Shown here piece by piece: positions 13,474 to 40,053 of a stretch of DNA of 64,000 nucleotides. The stretch lies in the IMG/VR virus record IMGVR_UViG_3300045988_155520, positions 192,001 through 256,000 of that record, one strand, 5' to 3'. Source of the stretch: a virus. A model generated the notes under the pieces. The model made no database searches. It saw only the letters and a list, made by a program, of their open reading frames with translations, and had not been told where the DNA came from. How positions within the stretch are numbered: the stretch's first letter is position 1; each line of letters begins with the position of its first letter. The translations under genes and the position numbers were made by a program.

Positions 13474-13815
13474 CTACAATTTTTTATTTCTAATAACCCA
13501 GTCCGTTTTAATCCACTTTTTTAATGTATTAACCAACATCTTTCTTAATTGTGAAAGATTTTTACACCTCAAATATTTTGGTTCACACTCAATAACCTCA
13601 AATTTATCAAACGCCCTGCATAAACCTTTTTCAAGTAGTTTATTATGAAAGGTTGTTAATTCTTTTTTTTCCTCAACTGATAATATTTCAGACAGCATAA
13701 TAAAACCGACCCCCGAAAACAAATCTATATTATAGATTTTTAAAGTAAAGTTCTCATCAAATTCTAATTTGAGAACACATTTAAAAGTATATTCGCCTAC
13801 TTGTTTAATTTCCAT
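13474..13815 (-). CDS. hypothetical protein
   Basis: 113-aa ORF, 20 nt after the upstream gene. Confidence 0.65.
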   Translation of the reverse strand: MEIKQVGEYTFKCVLKLEFDENFTLKIYNIDLFSGVGFIMLSEILSVEEKKELTTFHNKLLEKGLCRAFDKFEVIECEPKYLRCKNLSQLRKMLVNTLKKWIKTDWVIRNKKL

Positions 13816-13835
13816 AGTCCAATATATTTAGTTAG

Positions 13836-14078
13836 TTACTTTACTTCAATTCCATATACGTAATACATATCGTATTCGCCCGAATTAATGTTTTCAAATA
13901 CTACTTTATAGTCGGTGGTTGTAACTTTAATATCCTTAGTAATTTTATCTTTGTGCTTTTGCACACACTCGTTCCAATATTTTTTAGCGTCCTCCTCCTT
14001 TTGGAAAAGTTCTAAAATCTTATCATACTCGCAATAATTGTTATGAGTAGTAAACCAAACACCATATACTTTATTCAT
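13836..14078 (-). CDS. hypothetical protein (weakly resembles 16676-16939 and 16978-17256)
   Basis: 80-aa ORF with a conserved leader and CATAATTC start context. Shares the ...EEDAKK... motif. Confidence 0.7.
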   Translation of the reverse strand: MNKVYGVWFTTHNNYCEYDKILELFQKEEDAKKYWNECVQKHKDKITKDIKVTTTDYKVVFENINSGEYDMYYVYGIEVK

Positions 14079-14152
14079 AATTCAATGATTTAATTTAACC
14101 GATACTTGAAATAGGGTGGTCGGTTGTTAACCCCTTTATTATTGATTGACGA

Positions 14153-14187
14153 TGCAAAGATAAGCAATTAATTTTAAACTACCAAAT
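14153..14187 (-). promoter_or_regulatory. Bacteroidota-type promoter
   Basis: rc -7 TGCAAAG at 14153-14159 and rc -33 ACCAAA at 14181-14186. Confidence 0.75.
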
Positions 14188-14238
14188 GTTTTATTAAAAA
14201 TATTCATAGCGTTAACTTTTATTAACAATTAAGTATTA

Positions 14239-14270
14239 TTCCTTCGTGTGTGCGTATATATAATATTATA
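14239..14270. repeat. intergenic-block core (alternating purine/pyrimidine), orientation A
   Basis: TTCCTTCGTGTGTGCGTATATATAATATTATA. Perfect Py/Pu alternation over 14245-14262. Confidence 0.8.
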
Positions 14271-14398
14271 ACAATAAAGTAAATTACGCTATTAGTTCAT
14301 TTATTTGCGTTCTAATACGTTTAATTAAAGAAATACTGTAATTATAGGTTTGTTTGAATAAAACCGCTTAAAAGTGAAATAAACCATATATAAACAAT

Positions 14399-14429
14399 AA
14401 AGGTAGTACCCTAAATTGATACTACCTTT
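14399..14429 (-). terminator. hairpin terminator
   Basis: AAAGGTAGTA pairs with TACTACCTTT, directly after the stop of 14437-15015. Confidence 0.8.
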
Positions 14430-14436
14430 CAAGTAT

Positions 14437-15015
14437 TTACTTTGTCAACATATCCCACAACATTTTTAGGTCGTGCGTTTTACCTATTTGCACAATGTTC
14501 TGTAGTTTATATGTAACAACCTTCGTTTGCTCCTCCATTTCAAGTCCTGCCTCCGTTTGTTTTGCATTGTCTTTTTTAGGTGCGGTATAAATCCAACTTT
14601 CAATGTCCGCACGTGTTGTGTCGTCTGTGACCACTTTGCCGTCTAATACAAAGACGTTTTCAAAAGTGGTTTTGTCTGAAGGGCGGTAATTCATTGTTAA
14701 ATAAAATTGTTCACTATCTTTGTCAGACTGAAGAATATAAGGGTACATACCTTCTACAAATTTCATTCCTTTTCGGGGTGCTGCTTTGTAGTCAGTATCA
14801 AGTCCCTTCTTTTCCAAAGTAGCGTTTACACTATTTACATAACTACCAAAACGGCAATTTGTTATTAGTGTCATTTTCTCTACCCTTCCCACGAAAGGAC
14901 AACTTTTACCTCCTCTAAATTTTGGTTCCGACTTTACAACCATTGCAGCACCAAACTTTGTGCTAATAGTCTTAACTAAATTGTAAACGCTTTCGATGTT
15001 TGTTGTATTATTCAT
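14437..15015 (-). CDS. hypothetical protein
   Basis: 192-aa ORF with conserved leader and promoter. No motif I can name. Confidence 0.75.
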   Translation of the reverse strand: MNNTTNIESVYNLVKTISTKFGAAMVVKSEPKFRGGKSCPFVGRVEKMTLITNCRFGSYVNSVNATLEKKGLDTDYKAAPRKGMKFVEGMYPYILQSDKDSEQFYLTMNYRPSDKTTFENVFVLDGKVVTDDTTRADIESWIYTAPKKDNAKQTEAGLEMEEQTKVVTYKLQNIVQIGKTHDLKMLWDMLTK

Positions 15016-15090
15016 AATTCAATGATAATTAATTTAACGGACATTTTATTTAGGTAGTCTGTTGTTATACCTTTTGTTATTGATTGACAT

Positions 15091-15125
15091 TGCAAAGATA
15101 GGCAATTAATTTGAGTTATGCAAAT
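15091..15125 (-). promoter_or_regulatory. Bacteroidota-type promoter
   Basis: rc -7 TGCAAAG at 15091-15097 and rc -33 GCAAA at 15120-15124. Confidence 0.7.
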
Positions 15126-15173
15126 AAAATAAAGTATTTAACATTATTTTAACAATAAAAACTACTCTTTGTT

Positions 15174-15395
15174 TTAATATCTATTGTGTCCATAATTCTT
15201 TTCCACGTAATGTTCACCGATTTTATTATAGATGTCTTCAATGTGGATAAGTATTAGACACACGAAATAGACACCTAAAAGAATAAACCACGCTGAAATA
15301 TTTTGACAGCCACTAAGAAGTAAGTAAGCGTTTACAATATACATTAATATTGTTGACAAACATACCAAGCCATATTGTATAAAAATTTTATTCAT
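15174..15395 (-). CDS. small membrane protein (two predicted TM segments)
   Basis: 73 aa, hydrophobic (LVCLSTILMYIVNAYLLL, AWFILLGVYFVCLILI). C-half resembles the product of 15458-15601. Confidence 0.65.
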   Translation of the reverse strand: MNKIFIQYGLVCLSTILMYIVNAYLLLSGCQNISAWFILLGVYFVCLILIHIEDIYNKIGEHYVEKNYGHNRY

Positions 15396-15457
15396 AATTC
15401 AATATCTTTAAATTTAACCAACTCTTTAATTAGGGTGGTCGGTTGTTTAACCCTTTG

Positions 15458-15601
15458 TTATTTATTTATCAAATAGACACCTAAAAACATAAAGCAATAT
15501 GAAATCATTTTCCAATCACTCAAAGTTGAGTAAGTGTGTGCAACATGAAGTAATATTATTAACAATAATATTAAACCAATCAGTATTATATTTCTTTTCA
15601 T
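15458..15601 (-). CDS. small membrane protein (47 aa), paralog of 15174-15395
   Basis: ATG 15601-15599 to stop 15460-15458: MKRNIILIGLILLLIILLHVAHTYSTLSDWKMISYCFMFLGVYLINK. Promoter lies 50 nt upstream. Below the track cutoff. Confidence 0.55.
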   Translation of the reverse strand: MKRNIILIGLILLLIILLHVAHTYSTLSDWKMISYCFMFLGVYLINK

Positions 15602-15652: not shown

Positions 15653-15687
15653 TGCAAAGTTAAGCAATTTATTTCATTCCACAAAAT
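15653..15687 (-). promoter_or_regulatory. Bacteroidota-type promoter
   Basis: rc -7 TGCAAAG at 15653-15659 and rc -33 CACAAAA at 15680-15686. Confidence 0.7.
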
Positions 15688-15725
15688 TATTATAGTTAAT
15701 TAAAGTTAACGCACGTATTTTACTT

Positions 15726-15741
15726 GTACTTATATAAGTCA
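15726..15741. promoter_or_regulatory. 16-bp palindrome copy (GTACTTATATAAGTCA)
   Basis: Family GTACTTA-NN-TAAGTA. Lies just upstream of the GTTAA element and the promoter at 15653-15687. Confidence 0.7.
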
Positions 15742-15770
15742 GTGTTTGGATATTGATTTGGTTTATATGT

Positions 15771-15810
15771 CTTATACGTGTGTATATATAATATATATAT
15801 AATATAATAA
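15771..15810. repeat. intergenic-block core, orientation A (partial)
   Basis: CTTATACGTGTGTATATATAATATATATATAATATAATAA. Confidence 0.6.
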
Positions 15811-15811
15811 C

Positions 15812-15843
15812 AAAGGGACAGCAATATAAATTACTATCCCTTT
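15812..15843 (-). terminator. hairpin terminator
   Basis: AAAGGGA pairs with TCCCTTT after the stop of 15871-16182. Confidence 0.65.
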
Positions 15844-15870
15844 TATACAAGTTATCTATGTGTTTGTTTA

Positions 15871-16182
15871 TTAATACTCTTGTTCCTCAAAGTAGTCAAT
15901 AATCTCATCAATATTATCATTAATGGTTAACATAACATCGCCTGCTGTACCGCTAATTACATTTCCGTTTCTGTCATATTTAAAGAAACTATCGTATGGG
16001 TTAAACTTTCCGCTTGCGAGTTTGCGTGCAATTTCAAATGGTGGGTAGTCTGCAAAATGATTATCAAAGTCGCTCATTGCATACCATTTGTTTGGTGACT
16101 CTACAGCATCCCAATACTCTTCGGCATATTGAAATTTCTCTACTGGTGATAAAGTTTCCCACTTTTCATATAAATTTTCCAT
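15871..16182 (-). CDS. hypothetical acidic protein, paralog of 16296-16604
   Basis: MENLYEKWETLSPVEKFQYAEEYWDAVESPNKWYAM versus MERLYRIWKTLSPIDKFFYAQEYWKSVNSPKMWYGM. Confidence 0.75.
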   Translation of the reverse strand: MENLYEKWETLSPVEKFQYAEEYWDAVESPNKWYAMSDFDNHFADYPPFEIARKLASGKFNPYDSFFKYDRNGNVISGTAGDVMLTINDNIDEIIDYFEEQEY

Positions 16183-16295: not shown

Positions 16296-16604
16296 TTATA
16301 ATTCGTTTGCGTTATATTCTATAATGTTATCAATATCGGAATTAATATCCTTCATGACATCTTCTGCGTTTCCGCTAACTAAAAGATGATGTTCATTGTA
16401 TCTAAAGAAACTATCTCTTATATCAAACTCTCTTGGTTGTATTATGCTTAAAACATCAATAGGTTTGTAACCTTTTAACTTTGTATCTATTTCATTCATT
16501 CCATACCACATTTTTGGTGAGTTAACACTCTTCCAATACTCTTGTGCGTAAAAGAATTTATCTATAGGTGATAATGTCTTCCAAATTCTATATAAACGTT
16601 CCAT
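16296..16604 (-). CDS. hypothetical protein, paralog of 15871-16182
   Basis: See the motifs listed for 15871-16182. Confidence 0.75.
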   Translation of the reverse strand: MERLYRIWKTLSPIDKFFYAQEYWKSVNSPKMWYGMNEIDTKLKGYKPIDVLSIIQPREFDIRDSFFRYNEHHLLVSGNAEDVMKDINSDIDNIIEYNANEL

Positions 16605-16675: not shown

Positions 16676-16939
16676 TTAATAGAGAGTTATCTTCTTTATT
16701 TCAATTTTACTATACTCATCGCTATCTATTACATTAATATAAATTGCGTGTTCATTCTCATCTACAAAAATGTCGTCTATAGGAAACTCGTTTTCAAAGT
16801 AAGACATATCTTCTTTGATAAGTTCCTTCATTTTCTTTTTAGCGTCTTCCTCGTTGCTATACGCTGCAATAGTAGCATAGTATGTTTCTCCACACATTTG
16901 TGTTTCCTGTGTAACGATAAAAATATTCTTTCCTTCCAT
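16676..16939 (-). CDS. hypothetical protein
   Basis: 87-aa ORF with CATAATT start context. Confidence 0.7.
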   Translation of the reverse strand: MEGKNIFIVTQETQMCGETYYATIAAYSNEEDAKKKMKELIKEDMSYFENEFPIDDIFVDENEHAIYINVIDSDEYSKIEIKKITLY

Positions 16940-16977: not shown

Positions 16978-17256
16978 TTACTTTTCCCACTTATCAAGTA
17001 TTGTTTCGGTAATTCTCAATGTTGTGTGAACACTATTCTGAACTTCTGAAATGTGCATTATATCATCACTCTTTGTAATTATATAATCATTTTTATTCAT
17101 TTTGGAATATTCACTCTCGTAAATAGTTTCAAATGTTTCCTTCATTGCTTGTTTAGCACTTCTTTCACTACTAAATGTGCCAAGTACTAATACATCATTA
17201 GTAAACTTAACTTTTTCCTCCAACGTTAAAACGTACACTTTCTTAATTTGTTTCAT
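16978..17256 (-). CDS. hypothetical protein
   Basis: 92-aa ORF with CATAATTCTTATTTG context, downstream of the promoter at 17285-17319. Confidence 0.7.
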   Translation of the reverse strand: MKQIKKVYVLTLEEKVKFTNDVLVLGTFSSERSAKQAMKETFETIYESEYSKMNKNDYIITKSDDIMHISEVQNSVHTTLRITETILDKWEK

Positions 17257-17284: not shown

Positions 17285-17319
17285 TGCAAAGTTAAGGATA
17301 ATAATTGATATTACCAAAT
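17285..17319 (-). promoter_or_regulatory. Bacteroidota-type promoter
   Basis: rc -7 TGCAAAG at 17285-17291 and rc -33 ACCAAA at 17313-17318. Confidence 0.75.
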
Positions 17320-17364: not shown

Positions 17365-17949
17365 TTAACTGAAATAAAGTAAATCAAAGAAGAATGTAAT
17401 CAAATCTTCCTTCTTCATATCTTTAATCTCAATCTTTATTTTATCATCTTCTTTCTCTCCCAATCGGACAAAATATAATTCTGTAGGTTTATTTACCAAA
17501 CTGAAATAACGTCCGCTTAATACACTTATATCGTCCGTGTGTTTAATTAATTCTTTTGTAAACTTGAAGATAATACGTTTAACATCGTCCTCCGTGTACT
17601 TATCATATCCTATAAAGAAAGATAAACTACACATGATACTATTTTTGGTTTTCTCGTCCAATTCGTGTGTAATCTCTTTAATTGCAATATTATTCCTAAA
17701 GGACCAACCATATAACCGAGCAAATACATACTCATTGTAATTCTCTCTTGCAATGACACGATTGTATTTATAATCATAATCAAAGCATATAGCAATCATA
17801 TTCCTATCTTTATCTGAAACATAAAAGCGTTTCATATTGTAGGCAAGTTTAATTACATTTACTTTGTAATTAACGTTCTCCAAAAATCCTTCAAAGTTAT
17901 TGTCTTTAATAACTTTATCCAAGATAGAATTTAAATTAGGACTTGTCAT
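17365..17949 (-). CDS. hypothetical protein
   Basis: 194-aa ORF with CATAATTAC context. Confidence 0.7.
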   Translation of the reverse strand: MTSPNLNSILDKVIKDNNFEGFLENVNYKVNVIKLAYNMKRFYVSDKDRNMIAICFDYDYKYNRVIARENYNEYVFARLYGWSFRNNIAIKEITHELDEKTKNSIMCSLSFFIGYDKYTEDDVKRIIFKFTKELIKHTDDISVLSGRYFSLVNKPTELYFVRLGEKEDDKIKIEIKDMKKEDLITFFFDLLYFS

Positions 17950-18000: not shown

Positions 18001-18035
18001 TGCAAAGGTAAGTAATTTATTTCAATTAACCAAAT
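18001..18035 (-). promoter_or_regulatory. Bacteroidota-type promoter
   Basis: rc -7 TGCAAAG at 18001-18007 and rc -33 AACCAAA at 18028-18034. Confidence 0.75.
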
Positions 18036-18058
18036 TATTTATGTTAATAAAAACAAAA

Positions 18059-18091
18059 AACCATAACTACTTATCTCAAGCGGTTATGGTT
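18059..18091 (-). terminator. terminator hairpin with conserved loop (copy 1 of 5)
   Basis: Stem AACCATAAC/GTTATGGTT, loop TACTTATCTCAAGCG. Confidence 0.75.
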
Positions 18092-18143
18092 TGACTAAAC
18101 AATTTAATAACTAAATTAATATTAACTACAAAACTTATCTATA

Positions 18144-18398
18144 CTAATCTATATTTGAGATTGAATGCCAGCCATTTTCTGTTTGTTTCCACGCAACTTC
18201 GAACTTTTCCTTCTTATCTCCAAAAGCAAGTTTAAGCACTGATACATCATTTCCAACGTCCGTTAGTGTTATCTCTGTTGCAAGTCCTCCTAACGTTTCA
18301 TTCACTCGTTCAGAAAGGATTTCTCGCTTTCTGAACTTTGCAGGTTTCCAATTCTTTAATAAGTTGGACTTTATTACATCTCTAAATGTATTACTCAT
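18144..18398 (-). CDS. hypothetical protein
   Basis: 84-aa ORF, 11 nt after the upstream gene. Confidence 0.65.
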   Translation of the reverse strand: MSNTFRDVIKSNLLKNWKPAKFRKREILSERVNETLGGLATEITLTDVGNDVSVLKLAFGDKKEKFEVAWKQTENGWHSISNID

Positions 18399-18409: not shown

Positions 18410-18955
18410 TTACAAGTGAAAATTTGGTTTAATACGCTTATATGTATTCTCGTTTGGACACTTGTTACTTGATACAACAACGTCCGTTGCCCATGAGCTG
18501 ATAAATTTCAGTTCCCCTTCGTTAGGGTTGTAATCGTGGCACTTATCATAACTCAACTTGGTAAGGATAGGTAGTGGGTGCACAATCATATCCTTAACAT
18601 TTGGACAATCTTCAATGTCGACAAATTCCTTCTTTGTCTTATTGATAAAGTAACGGTACTCATTTGCTTTCAAGTCCTTTACATTCTCGTCAGTATTATT
18701 GATACGTGCAATATCCCAATGGTTATATTTTCCGTCTACCTCGTCCGCATAGTCACCTGCCCATACCATAGGATAACCTTTATACTTTCCGTCCTCATCA
18801 TTAATAAGAGTAGCAAAGGTATTAACAAATATATTACCCACGTAAGAATGTTCCATTAACTTGGAACCGCAGTTTAAGTCATGTGAGTGCAATGATGCAA
18901 TTACTTTTTTACTATCTTTTTTGTCAATAATGATAGGTTTAAAATATTGTCCCAT
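18410..18955 (-). CDS. hypothetical protein
   Basis: 181-aa ORF (MGQYFKPIIIDKKDSKK...LMEHSYVGNIFVN...VWAGDYAD) with CATAATTC context. Confidence 0.75.
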   Translation of the reverse strand: MGQYFKPIIIDKKDSKKVIASLHSHDLNCGSKLMEHSYVGNIFVNTFATLINDEDGKYKGYPMVWAGDYADEVDGKYNHWDIARINNTDENVKDLKANEYRYFINKTKKEFVDIEDCPNVKDMIVHPLPILTKLSYDKCHDYNPNEGELKFISSWATDVVVSSNKCPNENTYKRIKPNFHL

Positions 18956-18990: not shown

Positions 18991-19025
18991 TGCAAAGATA
19001 AGCAATTATCATTACACTACCAAAT
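18991..19025 (-). promoter_or_regulatory. Bacteroidota-type promoter
   Basis: rc -7 TGCAAAG at 18991-18997 and rc -33 ACCAAA at 19019-19024. Confidence 0.75.
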
Positions 19026-19037: not shown

Positions 19038-19376
19038 TTAACTTTTATTTAACATATTGCGGTACTTTGGATTTCCATAAAACAAAGCAATATGATAATA
19101 ATCAACCACACCACACATCCCTTCAATTCCCTTAATATCTTTTTCGGAAAGGTCTATTTTACGTGGATATTCCAAGATAATACTATCTTTGTCCGTCTTA
19201 GTTTCGGGAACTCCATTTACAATATTTACCTCCTCTGCAATTCCGTCTTTAAACAACATTTTGAACTCGTGTTCAGTACGTGGGTTTTTGTCATTAAAGA
19301 AAGGACCATATCCCATATTGATAAGAGTTTCGTCACAAATATAGATAGTGTCCCAATAACTTTCTAATACTTCCAT
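19038..19376 (-). CDS. hypothetical protein
   Basis: 112-aa ORF, 15 nt after the upstream gene. Confidence 0.7.
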   Translation of the reverse strand: MEVLESYWDTIYICDETLINMGYGPFFNDKNPRTEHEFKMLFKDGIAEEVNIVNGVPETKTDKDSIILEYPRKIDLSEKDIKGIEGMCGVVDYYHIALFYGNPKYRNMLNKS

Positions 19377-19391: not shown

Positions 19392-19688
19392 TTATAAAGA
19401 TGTTTCAAGTATAGCATTATAAACATTCATTTGACTAATACTATCGCATTTTTCGATAGATGTTTGTTCCCATTCATTCATACTATCATCTGTCATTAAG
19501 TCAACACAAATGTCATTACCAACAACAAAGGCTCTTATAACGGGATAATATTCTTTATCGCTTTCAATATAAGCCATAGCAGGAATATTCTCAACAAGTG
19601 CATATCCGTCTTCGTCAATAAAGCGCACTTCTTGTAAATCGTTATTTTTAAAAAAACGTATTACTCTTTGTTTAATTTCATTGTTCAT
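19392..19688 (-). CDS. hypothetical protein, paralog of 24061-24375
   Basis: IKQRVIRFFKNNDLQEVRFIDEDGYALVENIPAMAY versus LFRKHAISLMKANDIKELTFISNEGEWLIEDVPYVLC. Confidence 0.7.
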   Translation of the reverse strand: MNNEIKQRVIRFFKNNDLQEVRFIDEDGYALVENIPAMAYIESDKEYYPVIRAFVVGNDICVDLMTDDSMNEWEQTSIEKCDSISQMNVYNAILETSL

Positions 19689-33591: not shown

Positions 33592-33634
33592 ATATTTCTG
33601 ATTTTAACACTTATTTAACATATCACTTTATAGG

Positions 33635-33672
33635 TTATATATTATATACGCACACACAATATATTATATAAT
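33635..33672. repeat. intergenic-block core, orientation B (degenerate)
   Basis: TTATATATTATATACGCACACACAATATATTATATAAT, followed by ACGTTTTAAGACGT at 33683-33696. Confidence 0.65.
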
Positions 33673-33775
33673 CTCAAATAAGACGTTTTAAGACGTGAGA
33701 ATTACTCACGACTTGTAATTTATCATCGTATAACTTATAAAGTATTAGAATGAAAATAAACCACACATAAAAGGA

Positions 33776-33810
33776 AATCTATCACTACTTATCACAAGCA
33801 ATGATAGATT
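33776..33810 (-). terminator. terminator hairpin with conserved loop (copy 3 of 5)
   Basis: Stem AATCTATCA/TGATAGATT, loop CTACTTATCACAAGCAA. Confidence 0.8.
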
Positions 33811-33836
33811 AATAAAAAAAACAAACTAAATTATAA

Positions 33837-33844
33837 CCTATTCC
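33837..33844. repeat. 8-bp direct repeat CCTATTCC (left copy) flanking the orphan scaffold
   Basis: The identical octamer recurs at 33982-33989. Confidence 0.8.
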
Positions 33845-33981
33845 GATAGTTGTTCGTTAACAAATCCTAACAAAAACGTCAGCTTTGTTACTAATCATCT
33901 GTAAGCATTTCAACCTACAGCGGAGCTATCTTTCATCGCCCGTATTAAGATGTTACGGGCACCATTAAGGTCTCTGTGAAC
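33845..33981 (-). ncRNA. orphan omega-RNA-like scaffold: ORF-less copy of the TnpB 3' end / right end
   Basis: Hand alignment to 53652-53788 gives ~14 mismatches in ~137 nt with no gaps. Only the last 24 TnpB codons (VHRDLNGARNILIRAMKDSSAVG-stop) remain, preceded by an in-frame TGA. All four predicted stems are retained. Confidence 0.65.
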
Positions 33982-33989
33982 CCTATTCC
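33982..33989. repeat. 8-bp direct repeat CCTATTCC (right copy)
   Basis: Identical to 33837-33844. Contains the stop codon of the 31-aa ORF 33983-34078. Confidence 0.8.
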
Positions 33990-34078
33990 TTCATATTATC
34001 TATTTTATCCTTCCACTCATCGTAACTATGTGACGTTATAATCATGATTATAACTACCACCAAAATATAAATCATCAT
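33983..34078 (-). CDS. small hydrophobic peptide (31 aa)
   Basis: ATG 34078-34076 shares its A with the TGA stop of 34078-34440 (TGATG coupling). MMIYILVVVIIMIITSHSYDEWKDKIDNMKE. Below the track cutoff. Confidence 0.45.
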   Translation of the reverse strand: MMIYILVVVIIMIITSHSYDEWKDKIDNMKE

Positions 34079-34440
34079 CATTCTTTTGTCCGTGCATAAG
34101 TTCCTACAAGTTCGTCCAAAATAGCTATCCAATCTCCATAGTGAAAATCAGAACAATATTTTAAATCTTCTGTGAACTCTTCATTGTTAGCAATGTAAGT
34201 AATATCAATTGTTTCCGTTTCGTCATTTACAGACAATTCTTTTACATTGATATCCAACAATGAGTTATCCGACCACCCATCAAAATCAGGTGCCAAAGTT
34301 GAATAGATAACTTCCACTTTACCCCCACATGATATAACAATATCACGCATAACATTCAATACTTCCTCCGCACTCTTTTCTAAATTCTCTCGTGCTGACA
34401 TTGAAAGTTCCGAAAACTTTAATTTAAATGATTTATCCAT
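34078..34440 (-). CDS. hypothetical acidic protein
   Basis: 120-aa ORF with CATAATTCTTTAT context. Confidence 0.75.
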   Translation of the reverse strand: MDKSFKLKFSELSMSARENLEKSAEEVLNVMRDIVISCGGKVEVIYSTLAPDFDGWSDNSLLDINVKELSVNDETETIDITYIANNEEFTEDLKYCSDFHYGDWIAILDELVGTYARTKE

Positions 34441-34468: not shown

Positions 34469-34503
34469 TGCAAAGTTAAGAAAATAAATTGAACTATCCA
34501 AAT
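34469..34503 (-). promoter_or_regulatory. Bacteroidota-type promoter
   Basis: rc -7 TGCAAAG at 34469-34475 and rc -33 TCCAAA at 34497-34502. Confidence 0.75.
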
Positions 34504-34541: not shown

Positions 34542-34580
34542 AAGTAGTATGTCAACCATATTAGTTAAAACACACTACTT
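34542..34580 (-). terminator. hairpin terminator
   Basis: AAGTAGT pairs with ACTACTT (the stem extends with one mismatch) after the stop of 34597-34926. Confidence 0.7.
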
Positions 34581-34596: not shown

Positions 34597-34926
34597 CTAT
34601 TTTTTGAAACTTTCTCCGATTGCATTAATAACATCATCACTTACATTTAATTCAGATGATATATATAGACGCTTATATCTCTCATTGTCATTCATAACAA
34701 ACATAAGTTTGATGATTTTTCCTTTATAATCTAAATACCAAATATGAGGTGACAAAACAGATTTACTATCGGTTTTTAATATAGTAGATACGTCCTTGCG
34801 TGTTAAGTCCACGTCAATAATAGTCCTATCAAAAAGAGTTTTAAAAAACTCACTAATCTTATTAGATTCATTTTTTGAATAAGACTTTAAATCTTTTATC
34901 TTATTATTTAAATTAATTGCATTCAT
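34597..34926 (-). CDS. hypothetical protein, paralog of 30301-30654
   Basis: See 30301-30654. Confidence 0.75.
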   Translation of the reverse strand: MNAINLNNKIKDLKSYSKNESNKISEFFKTLFDRTIIDVDLTRKDVSTILKTDSKSVLSPHIWYLDYKGKIIKLMFVMNDNERYKRLYISSELNVSDDVINAIGESFKK

Positions 34927-34954
34927 AATTTCTATTTGTTTATTGATTTACGAC

Positions 34955-34989
34955 TACAAAGATAATTATTTAATTTGATATATCCAAAT
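34955..34989 (-). promoter_or_regulatory. Bacteroidota-type promoter
   Basis: rc -7 TACAAAG at 34955-34961 and rc -33 TCCAAA at 34983-34988. Confidence 0.65.
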
Positions 34990-35125
34990 AGATTTTATAT
35001 TTTAATATTAATTTAACACTTGATAGAATATTTGCTTTGTAAGACGTTAAAACAAACTATCTATATAAGTTATCAGATAAAACAAAAGAACTCTTTAGAA
35101 ACGAAATAAAGTGCATAAAACAAAA

Positions 35126-35160
35126 AATCTACCATGACTTATCACAAGCAATGGTAGATT
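35126..35160 (-). terminator. terminator hairpin with conserved loop (copy 4 of 5)
   Basis: Stem AATCTACCAT/ATGGTAGATT, loop GACTTATCACAAGCA. Confidence 0.8.
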
Positions 35161-35212
35161 ATGAAAAACATTGACTAACTAACCAACTAAATTATTTTCT
35201 ATTGTATTTTTT

Positions 35213-35563
35213 TTAATCAAAATATATCCTATCAACTAAAGACAAAACGTCTTCCATGTGCATAGCATCAATATTTACCCACTTATCACACTTCTGTCCA
35301 TTTTCGACAACAACATGACCTTCAAAACTTGTAAAGTAATCAGTTTTATTGCTTCTTACTTTGTCGATATATAATAGCGAACAAGTTTTATTAATAGCTG
35401 TGCCTTGTAAAAGATAACACTTGAAAGGGTAGTTATTATTCAACACAGAAACACCTTCTTGTCCATACTTTTCAATTTCAGTTTTAACTTCATCAAAACA
35501 TTCACGATAGTAATTAGAAATATCGTCTAAATATCCCTTGATAATAGCTTGATTGTTTGTCAT
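35213..35563 (-). CDS. hypothetical protein, paralog of 35569-35922
   Basis: CDKWVNIDAMHMEDVLSLVDRIYF versus CDEWIAINDFDIETAFGIIGCIKF. Confidence 0.7.
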   Translation of the reverse strand: MTNNQAIIKGYLDDISNYYRECFDEVKTEIEKYGQEGVSVLNNNYPFKCYLLQGTAINKTCSLLYIDKVRSNKTDYFTSFEGHVVVENGQKCDKWVNIDAMHMEDVLSLVDRIYFD

Positions 35564-35568: not shown

Positions 35569-35922
35569 TTACTTGCTTTGTTCAAATTTAATACAACCAA
35601 TAATACCAAATGCTGTTTCAATGTCAAAATCATTGATTGCTATCCACTCATCGCACACTTCATGGTTATTAGTTACCACGTGTACTTCAAGTATCGGTTC
35701 GGGCAATACACTATCAGCGACACGAATAGCGTTAATCTCGTAACGTACAGATTCGCAATCATCGTAAACAGCGTCCGCAACATAATTCTCATCGTCCCAA
35801 ACAACAGGTAAACCCTTCTCTCCAAATGGTTTCAAATAATTTACAACATAAGCAATTGTCATGTTATATCGGTTATATGTTTCATACATTAACCTATCAA
35901 ATTCTTTTTGAAATTCTTTCAT
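35569..35922 (-). CDS. hypothetical protein, paralog of 35213-35563
   Basis: 117-aa ORF with CATAATTCTAAATG context. Confidence 0.7.
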   Translation of the reverse strand: MKEFQKEFDRLMYETYNRYNMTIAYVVNYLKPFGEKGLPVVWDDENYVADAVYDDCESVRYEINAIRVADSVLPEPILEVHVVTNNHEVCDEWIAINDFDIETAFGIIGCIKFEQSK

Positions 35923-35946: not shown

Positions 35947-36120
35947 TTATTCAATTTCAATATCGGTAAATTCAGTGTCAACTACTCTCATACCTTCAAT
36001 CTCATCAGCTGTTACTGAATAAGTACATTCTGTACCAAATGTATCTAATAACTCTTCTTCTGTCATGTTTTCGTCATGTTCAACCAAAACACTAATTGTT
36101 AATTGTAGTCTTGTTTTCAT
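35947..36120 (-). CDS. small acidic protein (57 aa)
   Basis: ATG 36120-36118 (CATAATTCC) to stop 35949-35947: MKTRLQLTISVLVEHDENMTEEELLDTFGTECTYSVTADEIEGMRVVDTEFTDIEIE. Promoter lies 40 nt upstream. Below the track cutoff. Confidence 0.6.
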   Translation of the reverse strand: MKTRLQLTISVLVEHDENMTEEELLDTFGTECTYSVTADEIEGMRVVDTEFTDIEIE

Positions 36121-36159: not shown

Positions 36160-36194
36160 TGCAAAGGTAATGAAATAAATTGAAACTACAAAAT
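36160..36194 (-). promoter_or_regulatory. Bacteroidota-type promoter
   Basis: rc -7 TGCAAAG at 36160-36166 and rc -33 TACAAAA at 36187-36193. Confidence 0.7.
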
Positions 36195-36213: not shown

Positions 36214-36531
36214 TTATTTAACACTAATAAAGTTTTTGTTCTTATTGAATTGATTAAAAACATCAACACAAATTGTCATTTCGCTATATACGTTGTCTAC
36301 ATACATAGTCCTTGCCCATTCTTTTGCCTCCTCTAAAGTTGGAAAACTATTAGTAGGTGTCCTATCATCATATTCCCTATAGAAATCATAACAAGTTTTA
36401 TTTAAGTAAGAAGATTTACTAATTTTGCATATTCCTTCACTTGTTACGGCTAATAAATCACCTTCCATTTCAAACCATTCAAGACAAACAGACTTGGCTG
36501 CAATCTGACTTATGTTAATCTCTTTTTCCAT
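36214..36531 (-). CDS. hypothetical protein
   Basis: 105-aa ORF, 10 nt after the upstream gene. Confidence 0.7.
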   Translation of the reverse strand: MEKEINISQIAAKSVCLEWFEMEGDLLAVTSEGICKISKSSYLNKTCYDFYREYDDRTPTNSFPTLEEAKEWARTMYVDNVYSEMTICVDVFNQFNKNKNFISVK

Positions 36532-36541: not shown

Positions 36542-36790
36542 TTATAAATTCATTTCATATACTGCCTTCATGTTTCCTATCTTATTAATCTCAACATGAC
36601 AAGATTTATCAGACTTCTTACAATAGTAAACGTCCTCCGCTATTGAAGATGCACAATTTTCCAAATAACTCTTATCATTATTGAATGTAAGAAATTTTCT
36701 CGCAAGTTCCAAACCGCTATAAGTGCCGTTCTCTATTTCCTTTGCGTGTTCTCTAATTGATAGAATAGGGTTTATATATACATTATTCAT
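36542..36790 (-). CDS. hypothetical protein
   Basis: 82-aa ORF. Confidence 0.65.
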   Translation of the reverse strand: MNNVYINPILSIREHAKEIENGTYSGLELARKFLTFNNDKSYLENCASSIAEDVYYCKKSDKSCHVEINKIGNMKAVYEMNL

Positions 36791-36823: not shown

Positions 36824-37426
36824 TTAACAATCTCCAATCATAGGAGGACATATTAAATCAAATAATTGTTCCTCAACAACCTTCTTGAAAATATGATATA
36901 ACATAATTTGGTCTTTTAATCGTAATTGATTTATATATATCCATTTGTCACTAACCTTATCATAGAACCTTATTGAACCATTATCACATACAACCTTTGT
37001 AAAAGTGAAATGTCCATTTACATTTGGTATGGTACGAACATTCTCATTAGCAATAATTTCATTATTATTTAAAGCTAAGAAAGTTGCAAACTTGTCAATT
37101 ATTTTCTGAGACAAATCACTTTCTTCCTCGCTTAATTCATAAATTGTTTCAGTCAATGAAATAGCCTTATAGATATGATTTAAACCATGTTCACTTGATA
37201 AATCAGACATAGGGATAAATTTATTATCCAAACAATCAAGTCTATTAACGCAATGGAAATAAATATCGCCCTTACTAAGTACAATGTTGCATACATCATA
37301 CTCTTCAATATCTTTTCTAACAATAGGACAATTATTAACGAATGAAATATTATTACGATATTTCTTTTGCATATACATACGCAAATTATTTACATCACTC
37401 TCGCTAAATTTTAATAATTTACTCAT
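36824..37426 (-). CDS. hypothetical protein
   Basis: 200-aa ORF with CATAATTCTTAATTTG context. Confidence 0.75.
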   Translation of the reverse strand: MSKLLKFSESDVNNLRMYMQKKYRNNISFVNNCPIVRKDIEEYDVCNIVLSKGDIYFHCVNRLDCLDNKFIPMSDLSSEHGLNHIYKAISLTETIYELSEEESDLSQKIIDKFATFLALNNNEIIANENVRTIPNVNGHFTFTKVVCDNGSIRFYDKVSDKWIYINQLRLKDQIMLYHIFKKVVEEQLFDLICPPMIGDC

Positions 37427-37455: not shown

Positions 37456-37490
37456 TGCAAAAGTAGGAAATTAATTTGATATACACAAAT
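37456..37490 (-). promoter_or_regulatory. Bacteroidota-type promoter
   Basis: rc -7 TGCAAAAG at 37456-37463 and rc -33 CACAAA at 37484-37489. Confidence 0.7.
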
Positions 37491-37520: not shown

Positions 37521-38171
37521 TTACATACTAATATAAAGGTTTTTATTCTCACCACCTTCTGTGAGGATATAGAAGTGTCTACATATCGTAATTTTATCTT
37601 CAAAGGTAAGTTCATTGAAGTTGATATATGTTTCACTTGCATTGTCATATGCAAACATTTCCCCTTCTTTAAATTTAATTTCGGTAAATTCATACCAAAG
37701 TTTCCCAAACTCATCATCAAAACCTTTTTTAATAAAACATGGTTCTAACTCGTTGTCAGTATCGGAAATTACATTACCAAACATTTCAAACATTCGTAAG
37801 AAATTATTTTCCAAAGCCGTTGTAATGAATTTAAAATTACGGAATACCATAGAAAGTGTATCATCTGTAAAGCCTATATGTTCATAAATAATAAGTTCTC
37901 CTTCATTATAGGAACTTAAAACATTTTCAATAGGTAATGAACAAATTTCACCATGTTCTGTTGTACCACTAACCATTAACTTATTGTTAATAAGTGTTAA
38001 TTCCTTAACATCTAAAGTAACAATAGAATTTGTATCTTCTTTGTCCTTGCTTGGAATAACAAATTTAACTTGTGGATATGGTGCCGTCAAAAAATATGTT
38101 GAATTATTCTTTTTCAACATAGAAATTACTTCATTTCTCTTTCTCTCTACTAAATTTGTATAAGCACTCAT
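37521..38171 (-). CDS. hypothetical protein (N-terminus resembles 32871-33512)
   Basis: 216-aa ORF with CATAATTCTTATATT context. Confidence 0.75.
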   Translation of the reverse strand: MSAYTNLVERKRNEVISMLKKNNSTYFLTAPYPQVKFVIPSKDKEDTNSIVTLDVKELTLINNKLMVSGTTEHGEICSLPIENVLSSYNEGELIIYEHIGFTDDTLSMVFRNFKFITTALENNFLRMFEMFGNVISDTDNELEPCFIKKGFDDEFGKLWYEFTEIKFKEGEMFAYDNASETYINFNELTFEDKITICRHFYILTEGGENKNLYISM

Positions 38172-38210: not shown

Positions 38211-38245
38211 TGCAAAGATAAAAAAATAACTTGAATTATACAAAT
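38211..38245 (-). promoter_or_regulatory. Bacteroidota-type promoter
   Basis: rc -7 TGCAAAG at 38211-38217 and rc -33 TACAAA at 38239-38244. Confidence 0.7.
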
Positions 38246-38266
38246 AATCCAAGTTAATAAAAGTTA

Positions 38267-38361
38267 ATTACCTTGCGGTAAAGTGTTACAAACATCACAA
38301 AAATTGGTGCGATAGTAATAGATACGTTGTGATTACCTTTCGGTATTATATTACAAACATC
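38267..38361. repeat. two copies of a 30-bp direct repeat, 65-bp period
   Basis: ATTACCTTGCGGTAAAGTGTTACAAACATC (38267-38296) and ATTACCTTTCGGTATTATATTACAAACATC (38332-38361) match at 25 of 30 positions. Confidence 0.8.
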
Positions 38362-38366
38362 TTTAT

Positions 38367-38531
38367 TTATTTTCTCTTTGGTTTATTCTTTTTCCTTCTA
38401 TTACGCTTATTGCTGTACGGTGTTGACCCACTTCTATTTTTACCTTCCGACTTAAATTTCCTAAGCATATAATCATGCAAATAGTCAGTAGTTGGTTTTA
38501 ACTCCCAAGCAATACTTCTAAAATCTTCCAT
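38367..38531 (-). CDS. small protein with a highly basic tail (54 aa)
   Basis: ATG 38531-38529 to stop 38369-38367: MEDFRSIAWELKPTTDYLHDYMLRKFKSEGKNRSGSTPYSNKRNRRKKNKPKRK. Promoter lies 27 nt upstream. Below the track cutoff. Confidence 0.5.
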   Translation of the reverse strand: MEDFRSIAWELKPTTDYLHDYMLRKFKSEGKNRSGSTPYSNKRNRRKKNKPKRK

Positions 38532-38557
38532 ATTTTCTAAATGTTTTGATAATTTGC

Positions 38558-38592
38558 CACAAAGATAGATAATATTTTTAACATAACCAAAT
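38558..38592 (-). promoter_or_regulatory. Bacteroidota-type promoter
   Basis: rc -7 CACAAAG at 38558-38564 and rc -33 ACCAAA at 38586-38591. Confidence 0.6.
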
Positions 38593-38637
38593 AATACATA
38601 GCATTTAACTATAATTTAACATCCTATGTACTACTTT

Positions 38638-38653
38638 GTACTTATTTAAGTAT
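38638..38653. promoter_or_regulatory. 16-bp palindrome copy (GTACTTATTTAAGTAT)
   Basis: Overlaps the stop of 38646-39398. Lies upstream of the GTTAA element and the promoter at 38558-38592. Confidence 0.7.
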
Positions 38654-39398
38654 GACTCTCTATGTTATTATACATTTCTTCTACATATTTAATAACTCTT
38701 TCGTACTCTTGTCCGCTTAACTTACTATCTTCATAAGCCTTCTTGATAAGTTCCTCACTTGTACCATAGAAACAACCTACCTTCCACTTCTTATTTGAAC
38801 GTGTATAAACAAAGTAACGACCACTACTCCATGTATTCTTTCCAACATAGTAGTCAGTAATTGATTTTATTTCAGCGTCTCCACATATATGAATGTTCCC
38901 GTATATTTCAGTGTAACCATGAACTTTAACATTATCATAAATTTGTACATCATTGAATATATAAGCATTTCCATAAATATATGCACATCCAAATACCTTT
39001 ACATTGTTATAAATTTGTGCGTTATTAGAAATTCTTGCATTATCAAAAATGTGTGCATTATCATATACTGAAACATCATTTTGTAAAATTGCGCAATCTT
39101 GTATTTTTGAATTACCTCCTACTTCTGCATTGTCAGTAACAATAGCATATCCAAATACCTTCGCATTGCCACAAACTATAGCTTTTCCACTGACATGAGC
39201 ATTCTGAAATACCATTGCTTCATCATACACCCAACATGTTCCTCTTTGAGATAGATTTTCTTCTTTCTCAATCCATCCCCCTAAATCACCCTTCTTGATT
39301 TGATAAAAATCTCTTAGTGCTTCTATTCTATAAAGGGTAATGCCATTGAACTCCTTTGAAATATCAGTTCTAATTTTATACTTGTTTATCGCATTCAT
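38646..39398 (-). CDS. beta-helix-like repeat protein (family BH, 3 of 4)
   Basis: KYKIRTDISKEFNGITLYRIEALRDFYQIKKGDLGGWIEKEENLSQRGTCW plus GNAxV/DNAxI repeats. C-terminus DYYVGKNTWSSGRYFVYTRSNKKWKVGCFYGTSEELIKKAYEDS is nearly identical to that of 29385-30119. Confidence 0.8.
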   Translation of the reverse strand: MNAINKYKIRTDISKEFNGITLYRIEALRDFYQIKKGDLGGWIEKEENLSQRGTCWVYDEAMVFQNAHVSGKAIVCGNAKVFGYAIVTDNAEVGGNSKIQDCAILQNDVSVYDNAHIFDNARISNNAQIYNNVKVFGCAYIYGNAYIFNDVQIYDNVKVHGYTEIYGNIHICGDAEIKSITDYYVGKNTWSSGRYFVYTRSNKKWKVGCFYGTSEELIKKAYEDSKLSGQEYERVIKYVEEMYNNIESHT

Positions 39399-39407
39399 GT
39401 TCTATTT

Positions 39408-39423
39408 GTACTTATTTAAGTAT
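39408..39423. promoter_or_regulatory. 16-bp palindrome copy (GTACTTATTTAAGTAT)
   Basis: Fills the 30-nt gap between 39429-39872 and 38646-39398, 9 nt upstream of ATG 39398. Confidence 0.7.
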
Positions 39424-39428
39424 GGTTA

Positions 39429-39872
39429 TTATACTAATTCAGTATGTTCTAAAATATCATTTCCTCCAACTCTTGCAAAACCTGCAATTTTAGAATGACC
39501 TAAAACTTTAGCATTATGACATACCCATGCATCTCCGTACACTTCTGCGTAATCAAATACTTCTGCGTTATCACTTATATACGCATTTTCACATAGATTA
39601 GCATTACCATATACTCGGACCTCATTAAACAATCTTGCTTTATCACGAACTTTAGCATTGTCAAATACTTTGGCATTCTCACGGACGAAGGCATTACCAT
39701 ATACCCAACAGTCGCCTTCTTGAGATAGATTTTCCCCTTTCTCAATCCAACCACCAATATCTCCCTTTTTTACATCACTAAAGTCCTTTAACGCTTCAAT
39801 ACGATAAAGGGTAATACCACCATCAAGTTTTAATGACATATCTTCTCTAATTCTGTATTTCTTTTCTTCCAT
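39429..39872 (-). CDS. beta-helix-like repeat protein, C-terminally short (family BH, 4 of 4)
   Basis: Start taken at MEEKKYRIREDM (ATG 39872), parallel to the paralogs. Lacks the DYYVGKN...YTR C-terminal domain. Confidence 0.7.
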   Translation of the reverse strand: MEEKKYRIREDMSLKLDGGITLYRIEALKDFSDVKKGDIGGWIEKGENLSQEGDCWVYGNAFVRENAKVFDNAKVRDKARLFNEVRVYGNANLCENAYISDNAEVFDYAEVYGDAWVCHNAKVLGHSKIAGFARVGGNDILEHTELV

Positions 39873-40053
39873 AATTTCATTTATAATTGAATGATACAAA
39901 ATTACAAAGAAAAAATCAATTATCCAAATTAATTAATTATGTTTAACAAACTTATTTATTTTCGTTTTAAGAAGCTTTATTCAACCAAACATATAAATTT
40001 ATAGTCTACATTCCGAAATACTCTCACAGGTGCTTAAAATAGTAAAATCTTTA

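Follow-up and report, generated by a model that had tools for sequence, protein, structure and literature searches.

Introduction

The host-takeover module of phage SPO1, the early regions of T4 and the pre-early region of T5 are dense clusters of small genes, mostly of unknown function, that carry many strong promoters for the host RNA polymerase and are thought to redirect the host early. The present work concerns a 26-kb array of about 50 small genes in a viral sequence from the IMG/VR database (record IMGVR_UViG_3300045988_155520, positions 192,001 to 256,000; this stretch of 64,000 nucleotides (nt) is called the window below, and genes are named by their lower coordinate in it). The array is likewise a dense set of small genes with many strong, predicted host-type promoters, but homology of its genes to those of SPO1, T4 or T5 was not found. 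It is probably a hyperplastic accessory-gene region of an uncultured oral phage-like genome of jumbo size, with units read by the host RNA polymerase and repeats that provide homology for exchange. Whole cassettes have been gained, lost and replaced among close relatives, and several of the junctions lie inside repeated regulatory DNA.

The closest described counterpart comes from T4-like phages, whose hyperplastic regions contain ORFans (orphan open reading frames) flanked by promoter-early stem-loop (PeSL) cassettes. PeSLs have promoter and terminator activity, form mini-circles, and give rise to indels and replacements among close relatives (Arbiol et al. 2010, PMC2839356; Comeau et al. 2014, PMC4122927). 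The array has a similar repeated intergenic composite, in which promoter and terminator are predicted from sequence alone: a promoter of host-sigma type with AT-rich upstream DNA, a stem-loop terminator and translation signals. In both systems the motifs stand mainly before small ORFans in variable regions (about 1.0 promoter/kb inside the array versus about 0.3/kb outside). In T4-like phages, indel or replacement junctions between close relatives occur at the motifs; in the array, four clean junctions do so, with overlaps of 42-89 nt, and breakpoints are enriched in comparison with the array as a whole but not with other intergenic DNA. There are also differences. The array promoters are of the Bacteroidota -33/-7 type and not sigma-70, the leaders lack a Shine-Dalgarno (SD) sequence and have a fixed AGAATT-ATG context, the stem-loop precedes the promoter module and is not a part of it, a GTTAA-N6-GTTAA repeat is added upstream together with spacers of about 300 nt that bear further conserved motifs, and the whole is one contiguous 26-kb block on a single strand, with no T4-like core gene seen in the window and flanks. 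Integrons offer a second comparison, being one-directional arrays of small, variable and swappable gene cassettes, but the array has no integrase domain or attC-like sites, and its units have their own promoters and terminators where an integron has a shared Pc promoter. Literature searches turned up neither this lineage nor arrays of this kind in Bacteroidota phages.

Organization of the array and its transcription units

All 50 open reading frames (ORFs) of the array lie on the minus strand (Table 1); they are non-overlapping, encode proteins of 47-293 amino acids (aa; median 113 aa), and the plus-strand ORFs within the array are without exception short, each overlapping a minus-strand one. 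In public gene calls made independently on the source contig, the genes are likewise confined to one strand. An initial description of the region (the first-pass annotation) had recognized this one-directional set of small genes, although its estimate of some 55 genes is reduced here to about 50. It had also described near-identical cassettes of promoter, leader, ORF and terminator, an arrangement that was seen in roughly half of the units, while the remaining genes are in tight operons: 24 of the 50 genes share a promoter, in groups of two to four with gaps of 4-38 nt.

Promoters were sought with the pattern TTTG-N18-22-TAnnTTTG, which occurs 44 times in the window compared to 4.6 +/- 2.3 times in dinucleotide shuffles of it. 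Within the array there are 23 intergenic minus-strand sites and a further three with CTTG at -33, giving 26 promoter-bearing units, a number in line with the earlier claim that at least 25 genes have promoters of their own. The element TTTGCA, previously taken as the beginning of the leader, is the end of the -7 box. When the 26 promoters are aligned, an extended consensus emerges (TGTTAAAT-N-AA-N-GTTAAA ... TTATTTGG ... TTAnCTTTGCA ... TAAATCAATAA) that includes a direct repeat, GTTAA-N6-GTTAA, about 20-40 nt upstream of the -33 element. Promoters of the primary Bacteroidota sigma factor (sigma-ABfr) are defined by a -7 element TAnnTTTG and a -33 element TTTG at a spacing of about 19-21 nt (PMC7366714), and those of the array match this consensus. 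A scan for sigma-70 promoters of the E. coli type gave matches at chance level, and that type was rejected. The strand bias of the promoters is kept in 14 related loci (222 sites versus 59).

The ATG follows the -7 box after 24-77 nt (median 41). The leader is A-rich, ends in AGAATT-ATG, and contains an SD-like motif in just two of the 50 genes. Around the start codons of the 50 genes, A is found at -6 in 33, G at -5 in 29, A at -4 in 40, A at -3 in 39, T at -2 in 40 and T at -1 in 44, with A at each of the positions -11 to -15 in 28-35 genes. In Bacteroidota, mRNAs are SD-less, favour A at -3, -6 and -11 to -15, and show adenine-dependent initiation (PMC7366714), a description that the array starts fit in lacking an SD and in being enriched for A at these positions. 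The near-invariant leader noticed earlier is thus real, and it is specific to the array: genes outside have a start context that is just A-rich, with G at -5 in 0/47 compared to 29/50 inside. From these transcription and translation signals, the host phylum can be inferred to be the Bacteroidota.

Strong hairpins (-14 kcal/mol or lower, soon after the stop codon) were found in 15 of the 32 intergenic gaps of at least 60 nt, compared to 0-1 in shuffled gaps, and a wider scan listed 16, of which 12 have at least six T in the next 10 nt. Several of the putative terminators have in common an inner stem-loop, GCTTGnGATAAGTAG, while their outer stems differ. When the window was compared with itself (blastn), 79 matches were obtained, mostly between intergenic regions of the array, with lengths of 50-270 nt and identities of 68-88%. 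Six long spacers can be aligned across about 300 nt, with the order terminator, TTTATTTCGTTTCTAA, TGATAACTTATAAG, ACGTCTTAAAACGC, TTCATGCGTATGCGTAATATATTATATA, GTTAA repeats, promoter and leader; the motif TTCATGCGTATGCGTAATATATTATATA occurs in both orientations.

A typical unit would accordingly read, in the direction of transcription, as a GTTAA-N6-GTTAA repeat, a sigma-A-type promoter (-33 TTTG, -7 TAnCTTTGCA), an SD-less, A-rich leader ending in AGAATT-ATG, one to four ORFs and, in 16 cases, a stem-loop that is mostly followed by a T tail.

Cassette turnover among related genomes

Eighteen related loci were compared (L003, L005-L007, L012-L019, L022, L025, L027, L029 and others). They have a syntenic scaffold, with orthologs that are 52-100% identical in aa sequence and occur in conserved order, and on this frame the gene content varies widely. 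Genes 13474, 13836, 15174 and 15458 are missing in L003 and L005; in L003, 16978 is replaced by a beta-helix paralog, and in L005 genes 22138-23532 are missing. Gene 37521 is missing in 13/13 loci that cover its site, 22501/22891 are found in 5/13, and 29385, 30301, 30680, 31264, 34597 and 35947 are essentially limited to the closest clade. Only about 5-7 of 35 central genes are common to all relatives. Conversely, relatives hold cassettes that are not in the window, such as one of three genes specifying a GP88-domain protein (284-289 aa, Pfam PF17338) and proteins of 123 and 73 aa, which is inserted in the long spacer upstream of the 24942 promoter (L012 13049-14690, L014 12549-14190, L006 13363-14988).

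Even genomes with a 100% identical 218-aa protein (27866) differ by whole cassettes or multi-gene indels. Identities are also mosaic along the array, in that 24403 (59%), 25765 (63%) and 35569 (68%) adjoin genes at 97-100%. The alignment of related genomes, a check that had been proposed for the region, has therefore revealed gain, loss and replacement of cassettes, and the view of an accessory region reshuffled by cassette is upheld.

Four junctions are clean. In L015, a deletion of three genes has removed 31032-33542, and its two sides have an overlap of 49 nt that falls within the promoters at 31001 and 33559. Two further promoters, at 37458 and 38213, delimit the 37521 cassette, with an overlap of 42 nt. 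L012 and L016 have 1.9 kb of inserted DNA flanked by a repeat of 89 nt from the long spacer (25601-25689), and replacement of the 24942 cassette has the promoters at 24809 and 25521 as its limits. The core promoter interval is enriched for breakpoints when compared with the array as a whole (13/38, p = 2e-4; 7/27, p = 0.03).

Selection on the genes was estimated as the ratio of nonsynonymous to synonymous rates (dN/dS, Nei-Gojobori) for 72 ortholog pairs. The median is 0.23, which indicates that the ORFs are real genes under purifying selection; four pairs exceed 0.5 and none exceeds 1, and gene-wide positive selection was rejected. The earlier term 'diversifying' therefore holds for gene content and for allele replacement, but not as positive selection on the sequences, which evolve much as do the flanking genes (0.25). 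The accompanying idea of repeated cassette duplication and shuffling also needs qualification: cassettes do turn over, but duplication is not recent, because paralogs are only 23-57% identical in aa sequence, and the syntenic scaffold of the relatives indicates turnover on a conserved frame and not free shuffling.

Proteins of the array

Comparisons by blastp and phmmer, and all against all by hhalign with profiles to which orthologs from relatives had been added, place 23 of the 50 proteins in seven families. F1 consists of four YdcK-like beta-helix proteins (39429, 38646, 29385, 19789), F2 of 15871/16296, F3 of 15174/15458, F4 of 16676/16978, F6 of 28722/31264/30301/34597 and F7 of 35213/35569. 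F5 is a loose family based on an N-terminal domain (19392, 24061, 22891, 32871, 21813, 25765), to which 22501 is connected by matching the C-half of 22891. Nine of the ten paralog sets listed by the first-pass annotation were recovered by these methods (15871/16296, 19392/24061, 21813/25765, 22501/22891, 28722/31264, 30301/34597, 35213/35569, 15174/15458 and the four beta-helix proteins), but the pairing of 32871 with 37521 was rejected (BLASTP E = 0.84). An N-terminal motif said to be shared by otherwise unrelated members is real but weak, and it corresponds to F5, whose six members are joined by hhalign at 56-87% probability. The F5 domain either makes up a whole protein of about 100 aa or forms the N-terminal part of one of about 200 aa, and its profile retrieves only 23 clusters among 1.84 billion representative proteins. 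An AlphaFold2 model of 24061 (predicted local distance difference test score, pLDDT, 84) suggests a helix, a small beta-barrel and a second helix, with no significant match in the PDB; a weak resemblance of the N-domain model to Tudor/SH3-like folds (E above 0.1) was not used.

Most products found no match in Pfam, PHROGs, NCBIfam, PADLOC or the PDB, the beta-helix family being the sole assignment. The statement that no product carries an assignable motif is therefore correct for all but the four members of F1, which are matched by NCBIfam YdcK_fam (best E = 1.9e-28) and also by Pfam Hexapep and B_solenoid_ydck. Left-handed beta-helix proteins of the YdcK family are known from phages, such as orf229 of Streptococcus phage Sfi19, and 38646 is 34-47% identical to proteins of many phages; a difference is that the present array has four copies, and some relatives five or more. 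One array member gave marginal matches of the homing-endonuclease/NUMOD type (E = 5e-4 to 9e-3). The isoelectric point (pI) is 5.5 or lower for 29 of the 50 products, and two small pairs are hydrophobic.

Two orphans illustrate opposite distributions. Among 5.8 billion proteins, the homologs of 27866 (218 aa) make up no more than 14 clusters, each at least 75% identical, whereas the family of 18410 (181 aa) comprises 125 clusters, from a variety of large phage-like contigs. In this latter family, positions with G, Y, N, P, L and W are invariant, others with H, D and E are nearly so, and the motifs KLMEHS, WAGDYAD, IHPLP and GNGRGGGDY are conserved. Its AlphaFold2 model (pLDDT 95, predicted template modelling score 0.92) has no match in the PDB or BFVD, so that it may be an enzyme with an undescribed fold. 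In two contigs, members of the family adjoin genes for SIR2, NADAR, methylase and acetyltransferase proteins. Sequence searches of the PDB with 18410, 17365 and 31895 gave nothing significant, and neither did fold searches with the two models (18410 and the F5 N-domain).

Source genome and flanking genes

The window proteins match exactly those of a 250,705-bp contig from a human oral metagenome, and relatives reach 300-330 kb. The genome from which the window derives is phage-like and uncultured, comes from the human mouth and, at about 250-330 kb, has the size of a jumbo phage. The lineage is listed as viral in IMG/VR, where a scan with a Joint Genome Institute (JGI) homolog of the 218-aa protein 27866 gave matches; a scan of the same database with the 293-aa protein 31895 gave none, nor did near-identity DNA searches against 50,697 phage records. 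The G+C content along the window is 26-34%, mostly 27-30%, and the GC skew is steadily negative over the array. There are no tRNA genes in the window and no Rfam families at the gathering threshold, with chance-level matches only, in two GC-rich patches and in the long leaders.

Flanking genes specify BspA-type leucine-rich-repeat (LRR) proteins, DNA methyltransferases, a Thg1-like fusion protein, a metallophosphatase, TnpB and a crAss001_48-related protein, to which the flanks of relatives add a UvrD helicase, a thioredoxin and a deoxynucleoside monophosphate (dNMP) kinase. The T4-gp1-like domain of this kinase is all that recalls T4, no T4 core genes being recognized in the window or flanks. 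Of the BspA-type LRR proteins (382-1206, 2017-2727, 11449-12648, 58856-59485), the one of 399 aa has more than 1,600 homologs. The Thg1-like (tRNA-His guanylyltransferase) domain is at the C-terminus of a 687-aa fusion protein (9393-11456), and is nearest to those of Prevotella Lak megaphages, the closest, and Bacillus jumbo phages. The 128-aa protein at 57103-57489 (minus strand) carries a crAss001_48-related domain (Pfam PF21825, E = 2.3e-19), is named 'Sequestin' in precomputed annotations, and its gene has a Bacteroidota-type promoter of its own at 57513-57543.

Other features of the array and its borders

Three of the long leaders, those of 13836, 14437 and 15174 (14087-14140, 15024-15080 and 15404-15450, minus strand), contain a 45-nt insert, GGGGTTAACAACCGACCACCC...TCGGTT, that could fold as an H-type pseudoknot. 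With a fourth copy in L003 (about 13340-13400), 95% of cells pair, compared to 17-50% when the partners are slid, and there is one compensatory pair; four copies are too few for significance and there is no Rfam match, so that a pseudoknot is possible and compatible with the four sequences but statistically unsupported. Mini-hairpins are inserted in otherwise similar leaders, CAGTAATATTGCTG in three (near 21375-21395, 25495-25515 and 28550-28570) and GGGAATAGTCCC in four (near 15630, 17975, 27125 and 29305).

Between the array and a plus-strand module there is a stretch of 1.7 kb without called genes (40600-42310), which contains palindromes and a GC-rich patch. The palindrome TACTTAnnTAAGTA occurs eight times in the window (at 15727, 16266, 38639, 39409, 40260, 40760, 41335 and 41690) against 0.85 expected, with clustering near the array head and in the gene-poor region (40.6-42.3 kb). 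Most relatives have 3-5 clustered sites at the corresponding place; the element is operator-like and can be considered a candidate operator. The GC-rich patches, at 13100-13310 and 41430-41560, lie one on each side of the array, carry repeats of the type CCCACC(T/C)ACC without an Rfam match, and look like candidate genes for structured non-coding RNAs.

Within a 565-nt gap of the array, a 154-nt segment (33843-33995) is 89% identical to 53650-53803, the 3' end and downstream DNA of the TnpB (IS605 OrfB) gene at 53717-55066. It is situated between gene 34078 and its terminator, is missing in L017 (junction 33844|33982), and by this similarity looks like a solo TnpB-end or omega-RNA-like mini-insertion. 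A 771-nt gap (27095-27865) contains an AT-rich block of palindromic and tandem repeats (27462-27605), and four independent IMG/VR contigs of the lineage end inside this block, some 310-340 nt downstream of gene 27866 (218 aa). The block may represent an assembly breakpoint or a hairpin-forming site, or be linked to genome ends or replication.

Table 1. Predicted features of the array, with window coordinates (hairpin energies in kcal/mol)
Feature	Positions	Strand	Remarks
Array	13474-39928	-	50 ORFs, 26 promoter-bearing transcription units
ORF	39429-39899	-	156 aa; F1, YdcK-like beta-helix, N-terminal half only
ORF	38646-39398	-	250 aa; F1, YdcK-like beta-helix
ORF	38367-38531	-	54 aa; basic
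ORF	37521-38171	-	216 aa; missing in all 13 relatives covering the site
ORF	36824-37426	-	200 aa
ORF	36542-36790	-	82 aa
ORF	36214-36531	-	105 aa
ORF	35947-36120	-	57 aa; very acidic
ORF	35569-35922	-	117 aa; F7
ORF	35213-35563	-	116 aa; F7
ORF	34597-34926	-	109 aa; F6
ORF	34078-34440	-	120 aa
ORF	32871-33512	-	213 aa; weak F5 member (N-domain)
ORF	31895-32776	-	293 aa; largest of the array, no family or PDB match
ORF	31264-31815	-	183 aa; F6
ORF	30680-30976	-	98 aa; very acidic
ORF	30301-30696	-	131 aa (117 aa from first ATG); F6
ORF	29385-30167	-	260 aa (244 aa from ATG; true start probably ATG at 30119); F1, YdcK-like beta-helix
ORF	28722-29276	-	184 aa; F6
ORF	27866-28522	-	218 aa; 14 clusters only
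ORF	26741-27094	-	117 aa
ORF	26414-26608	-	64 aa; found in every relative compared
ORF	26173-26397	-	74 aa; basic (pI 10.2), found in every relative compared
ORF	25765-26097	-	110 aa; F5
ORF	24942-25466	-	174 aa; cassette replaced in L013, L015, L017
ORF	24403-24765	-	120 aa; alleles divergent in relatives (56-73%)
ORF	24061-24375	-	104 aa; F5
ORF	23847-24071	-	74 aa
ORF	22891-23532	-	213 aa; F5 N-domain, C-domain in common with 22501
ORF	22501-22854	-	117 aa; matches C-half of 22891
ORF	22138-22362	-	74 aa
ORF	21813-22103	-	96 aa; F5
ORF	21464-21808	-	114 aa
ORF	20826-21347	-	173 aa
ORF	19789-20502	-	237 aa; F1, YdcK-like beta-helix
ORF	19392-19688	-	98 aa; F5
ORF	19038-19376	-	112 aa
ORF	18410-18955	-	181 aa; 125-cluster family
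ORF	18144-18398	-	84 aa
ORF	17365-17949	-	194 aa
ORF	16978-17256	-	92 aa; F4
ORF	16676-16939	-	87 aa; F4
ORF	16296-16604	-	102 aa; F2
ORF	15871-16182	-	103 aa; F2
ORF	15674-15850	-	58 aa; doubtful (TTG start, hairpin inside)
ORF	15458-15601	-	47 aa; hydrophobic, F3
ORF	15174-15395	-	73 aa; hydrophobic, F3
ORF	14437-15015	-	192 aa
ORF	13836-14078	-	80 aa; missing in L003 and L005
ORF	13474-13815	-	113 aa; missing in L003 and L005
Promoter	42181-42212	-	extra, same type, past the limit of the first-pass annotation; upstream of two tiny hydrophobic ORFs (37 and 20 aa); terminator about 41900-41945
Promoter	39897-39928	-	of 39429 (-33 TTTG / -7 TAnnTTTG)
Promoter	38560-38591	-	of 38367
Promoter	38213-38244	-	of 37521
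Promoter	37458-37489	-	of 36824
Promoter	36162-36192	-	of 35947
Promoter	34957-34988	-	of 34597
Promoter	34471-34502	-	of 34078
Promoter	33559-33590	-	of 32871; L015 deletion junction partner of promoter 31001
Promoter	32815-32846	-	of 31895
Promoter	31001-31032	-	of 30680; L015 deletion junction partner of promoter 33559
Promoter	30165-30196	-	of 29385
Promoter	29334-29365	-	of 28722
Promoter	28576-28607	-	of 27866
Promoter	27156-27187	-	of 26741; CTTG at -33
Promoter	25521-25552	-	of 24942; CTTG at -33
Promoter	24809-24840	-	of 24403; CTTG at -33
Promoter	23562-23593	-	of 22891
Promoter	22391-22421	-	of 22138
Promoter	21401-21432	-	of 20826
Promoter	20533-20564	-	of 19789
Promoter	18993-19024	-	of 18410
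Promoter	18003-18034	-	of 17365
Promoter	17287-17318	-	of 16978
Promoter	15655-15685	-	of 15458
Promoter	15093-15124	-	of 14437; long leader with possible pseudoknot
Promoter	14155-14186	-	of 13836; long leader with possible pseudoknot
Terminator-like hairpin	35126-35160	-	-15.2; T-rich tail, conserved loop TTGTGATAAGT
Terminator-like hairpin	34542-34580	-	-15.4
Terminator-like hairpin	33776-33810	-	conserved loop GCTTGTGATAAGTAG
Hairpin	31844-31880	-	-18.1
Terminator-like hairpin	31212-31249	-	-20.1
Terminator-like hairpin	30238-30273	-	-19.0
Terminator-like hairpin	28660-28696	-	-15.2
Terminator-like hairpin	27780-27818	-	-20.0
Hairpin	26693-26732	-	-22.3; without T tail
Terminator-like hairpin	25721-25756	-	-16.8
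Hairpin	24894-24936	-	-21.5
Terminator-like hairpin	23786-23826	-	-20.5
Terminator-like hairpin	22448-22496	-	-16.5
Terminator-like hairpin	20762-20792	-	-16.8; conserved loop GCTTGGGATAAGTAG
Terminator-like hairpin	18058-18092	-	-14.4; conserved loop GCTTGAGATAAGTAG
Terminator-like hairpin	14391-14439	-	-16.4
Long composite spacer	20503-20825	-	about 300 nt: terminator, ACG(Y)CTTAAAACGC, TTCATGCGTATGCGTAATATATTATATA, GTTAA-N6-GTTAA, promoter, leader
Homologous long-spacer copies	23533-23846, 25467-25764, 30977-31263, 33513-33815, 34927-35212	-	

Discussion

If the array is a hyperplastic accessory-gene region, as is probable, the host RNA polymerase would read its promoters immediately after infection, and the products would then be early proteins acting on the host, in host takeover, anti-defence or exclusion. 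The host-type promoters point to early expression, and the small, acidic orphan products, the promoter type and the analogy with known phages suggest a host-directed function. The regulatory repeats of 50-270 nt, at 70-88% identity, would form a dispersed homology through which cassettes are swapped by recombination, as PeSLs are in T4-like phages.

Several observations weigh against this picture. Early timing is deduced from the promoter type and from analogy, and promoters of the same type also occur outside the array, at about 0.3/kb versus about 1.0/kb inside. Some junctions fall in coding DNA (e.g., 30682|35568 in L014), and since breakpoints are not enriched compared to other intergenic DNA (12/29 and 6/17 against 40% expected), recombination via the regulatory repeats is plausible, being illustrated by four junctions, but is unproven as a general rule. 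No product matched a known anti-defence or host-takeover protein in Pfam, PHROGs, NCBIfam or PADLOC, no dedicated anti-defence library having been searched, and a search of genome contigs with TnpB, as a hint to the host, gave no match. Finally, virion or packaging genes were not seen in the window and the flanks examined, so that the phage identity of the genome rests on its IMG/VR listing and its phage-typical genes.

Other explanations account for parts of the evidence. The cassettes could be real and their genes not early lytic ones, being expressed instead from host-read promoters constitutively, or in a carrier, lysogenic or plasmid-like state, as moron-type, superinfection-exclusion or fitness genes. 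Morons too are marked by host-type promoters and individual terminators, the array's promoter type precedes genes elsewhere in the window, the two pairs of small hydrophobic proteins could be exclusion or membrane factors, and the conserved cluster of 4-5 TACTTAnnTAAGTA palindromes at the array head suggests control by a regulator. This explanation carries some weight but is unlikely, given that integrase, repressor and partition genes were not seen in the 64 kb or in the flanks fetched, and that 26 strong consensus promoters, dense and in one orientation, resemble the early regions of lytic phages (PMC2839356). A different question is how the cassettes move. A dedicated site-specific or homing mechanism, recognizing the extra motifs of the spacers, might be responsible rather than general homologous recombination; the long spacers do bear conserved motifs without an evident promoter role (ACGTCTTAAAACGC, and TTCATGCGTATGCGTAATATATTATATA in both orientations), and many breakpoints lie in spacers outside the core promoter. 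The array has no integrase or recombinase, however, the endonuclease-type matches of its one candidate member are marginal, and junction overlaps of 42-89 nt fit homologous exchange, all of which makes such a mechanism improbable.

More improbable still is that the array is the accessory region of a large mobile element other than a phage, such as a megaplasmid. The lack of capsid, terminase and tail genes in the window and the flanks reached, and of PHROG matches for the large flank proteins, would agree with this, but the lineage is catalogued as viral, the Thg1-like, T4-gp1-like dNMP kinase, crAss001_48-related and YdcK-like proteins (the last found in many phages) fit a phage, and genes for conjugation or replication and partition were not seen. 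The first-pass annotation had itself named a conserved, syntenic core module as the finding that would speak against an accessory region. The scaffold is syntenic, with orthologs at 52-100% identity and with purifying selection of the same strength as on the flanking genes; yet most genes are missing in at least one close relative, one is unique to the window genome, and whole cassettes differ between strains with an identical marker protein. A core module with an essential function is already contradicted by this matrix of presence and absence, and is very improbable indeed.

A bolder version of the accessory-region reading is that the 100-300-nt modules are a dedicated system of Bacteroidota jumbo phages for cassette exchange and control, in which the GTTAA repeat, ACGTCTTAAAACGC and TTCATGCGTATGCGTAATATATTATATA would be binding sites for a phage factor with a part both in the timing of expression and in guiding recombination. 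In that case the array would resemble an integron that works without an integrase and stores counter-defence genes, among them some whose products have novel folds (e.g., the 18410 family). This is speculative and rather unlikely, but the interest of the region would be higher if the spacer motifs do direct recombination or timing, or if the orphan families are counter-defence proteins.

The array offers material for further study. Its 26 natural, predicted strong Bacteroidota promoter-leader modules with a fixed start context are potential parts for the engineering of Bacteroides and Prevotella, and the approximately 50 orphan proteins under purifying selection, with seven expanded families, are candidates for host-takeover or anti-defence screens in oral Bacteroidota. 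Protein 18410 stands out among them as a member of a widely distributed family with a confident predicted structure and no known fold match. For phage biology more generally, the array would extend the principle of PeSLs and hyperplastic regions, in which repeats drive early genes and also let them be swapped, to an apparently unrelated lineage of uncultured phages with another, predicted host phylum, and this suggests convergent evolution of hyperplastic genome architecture.

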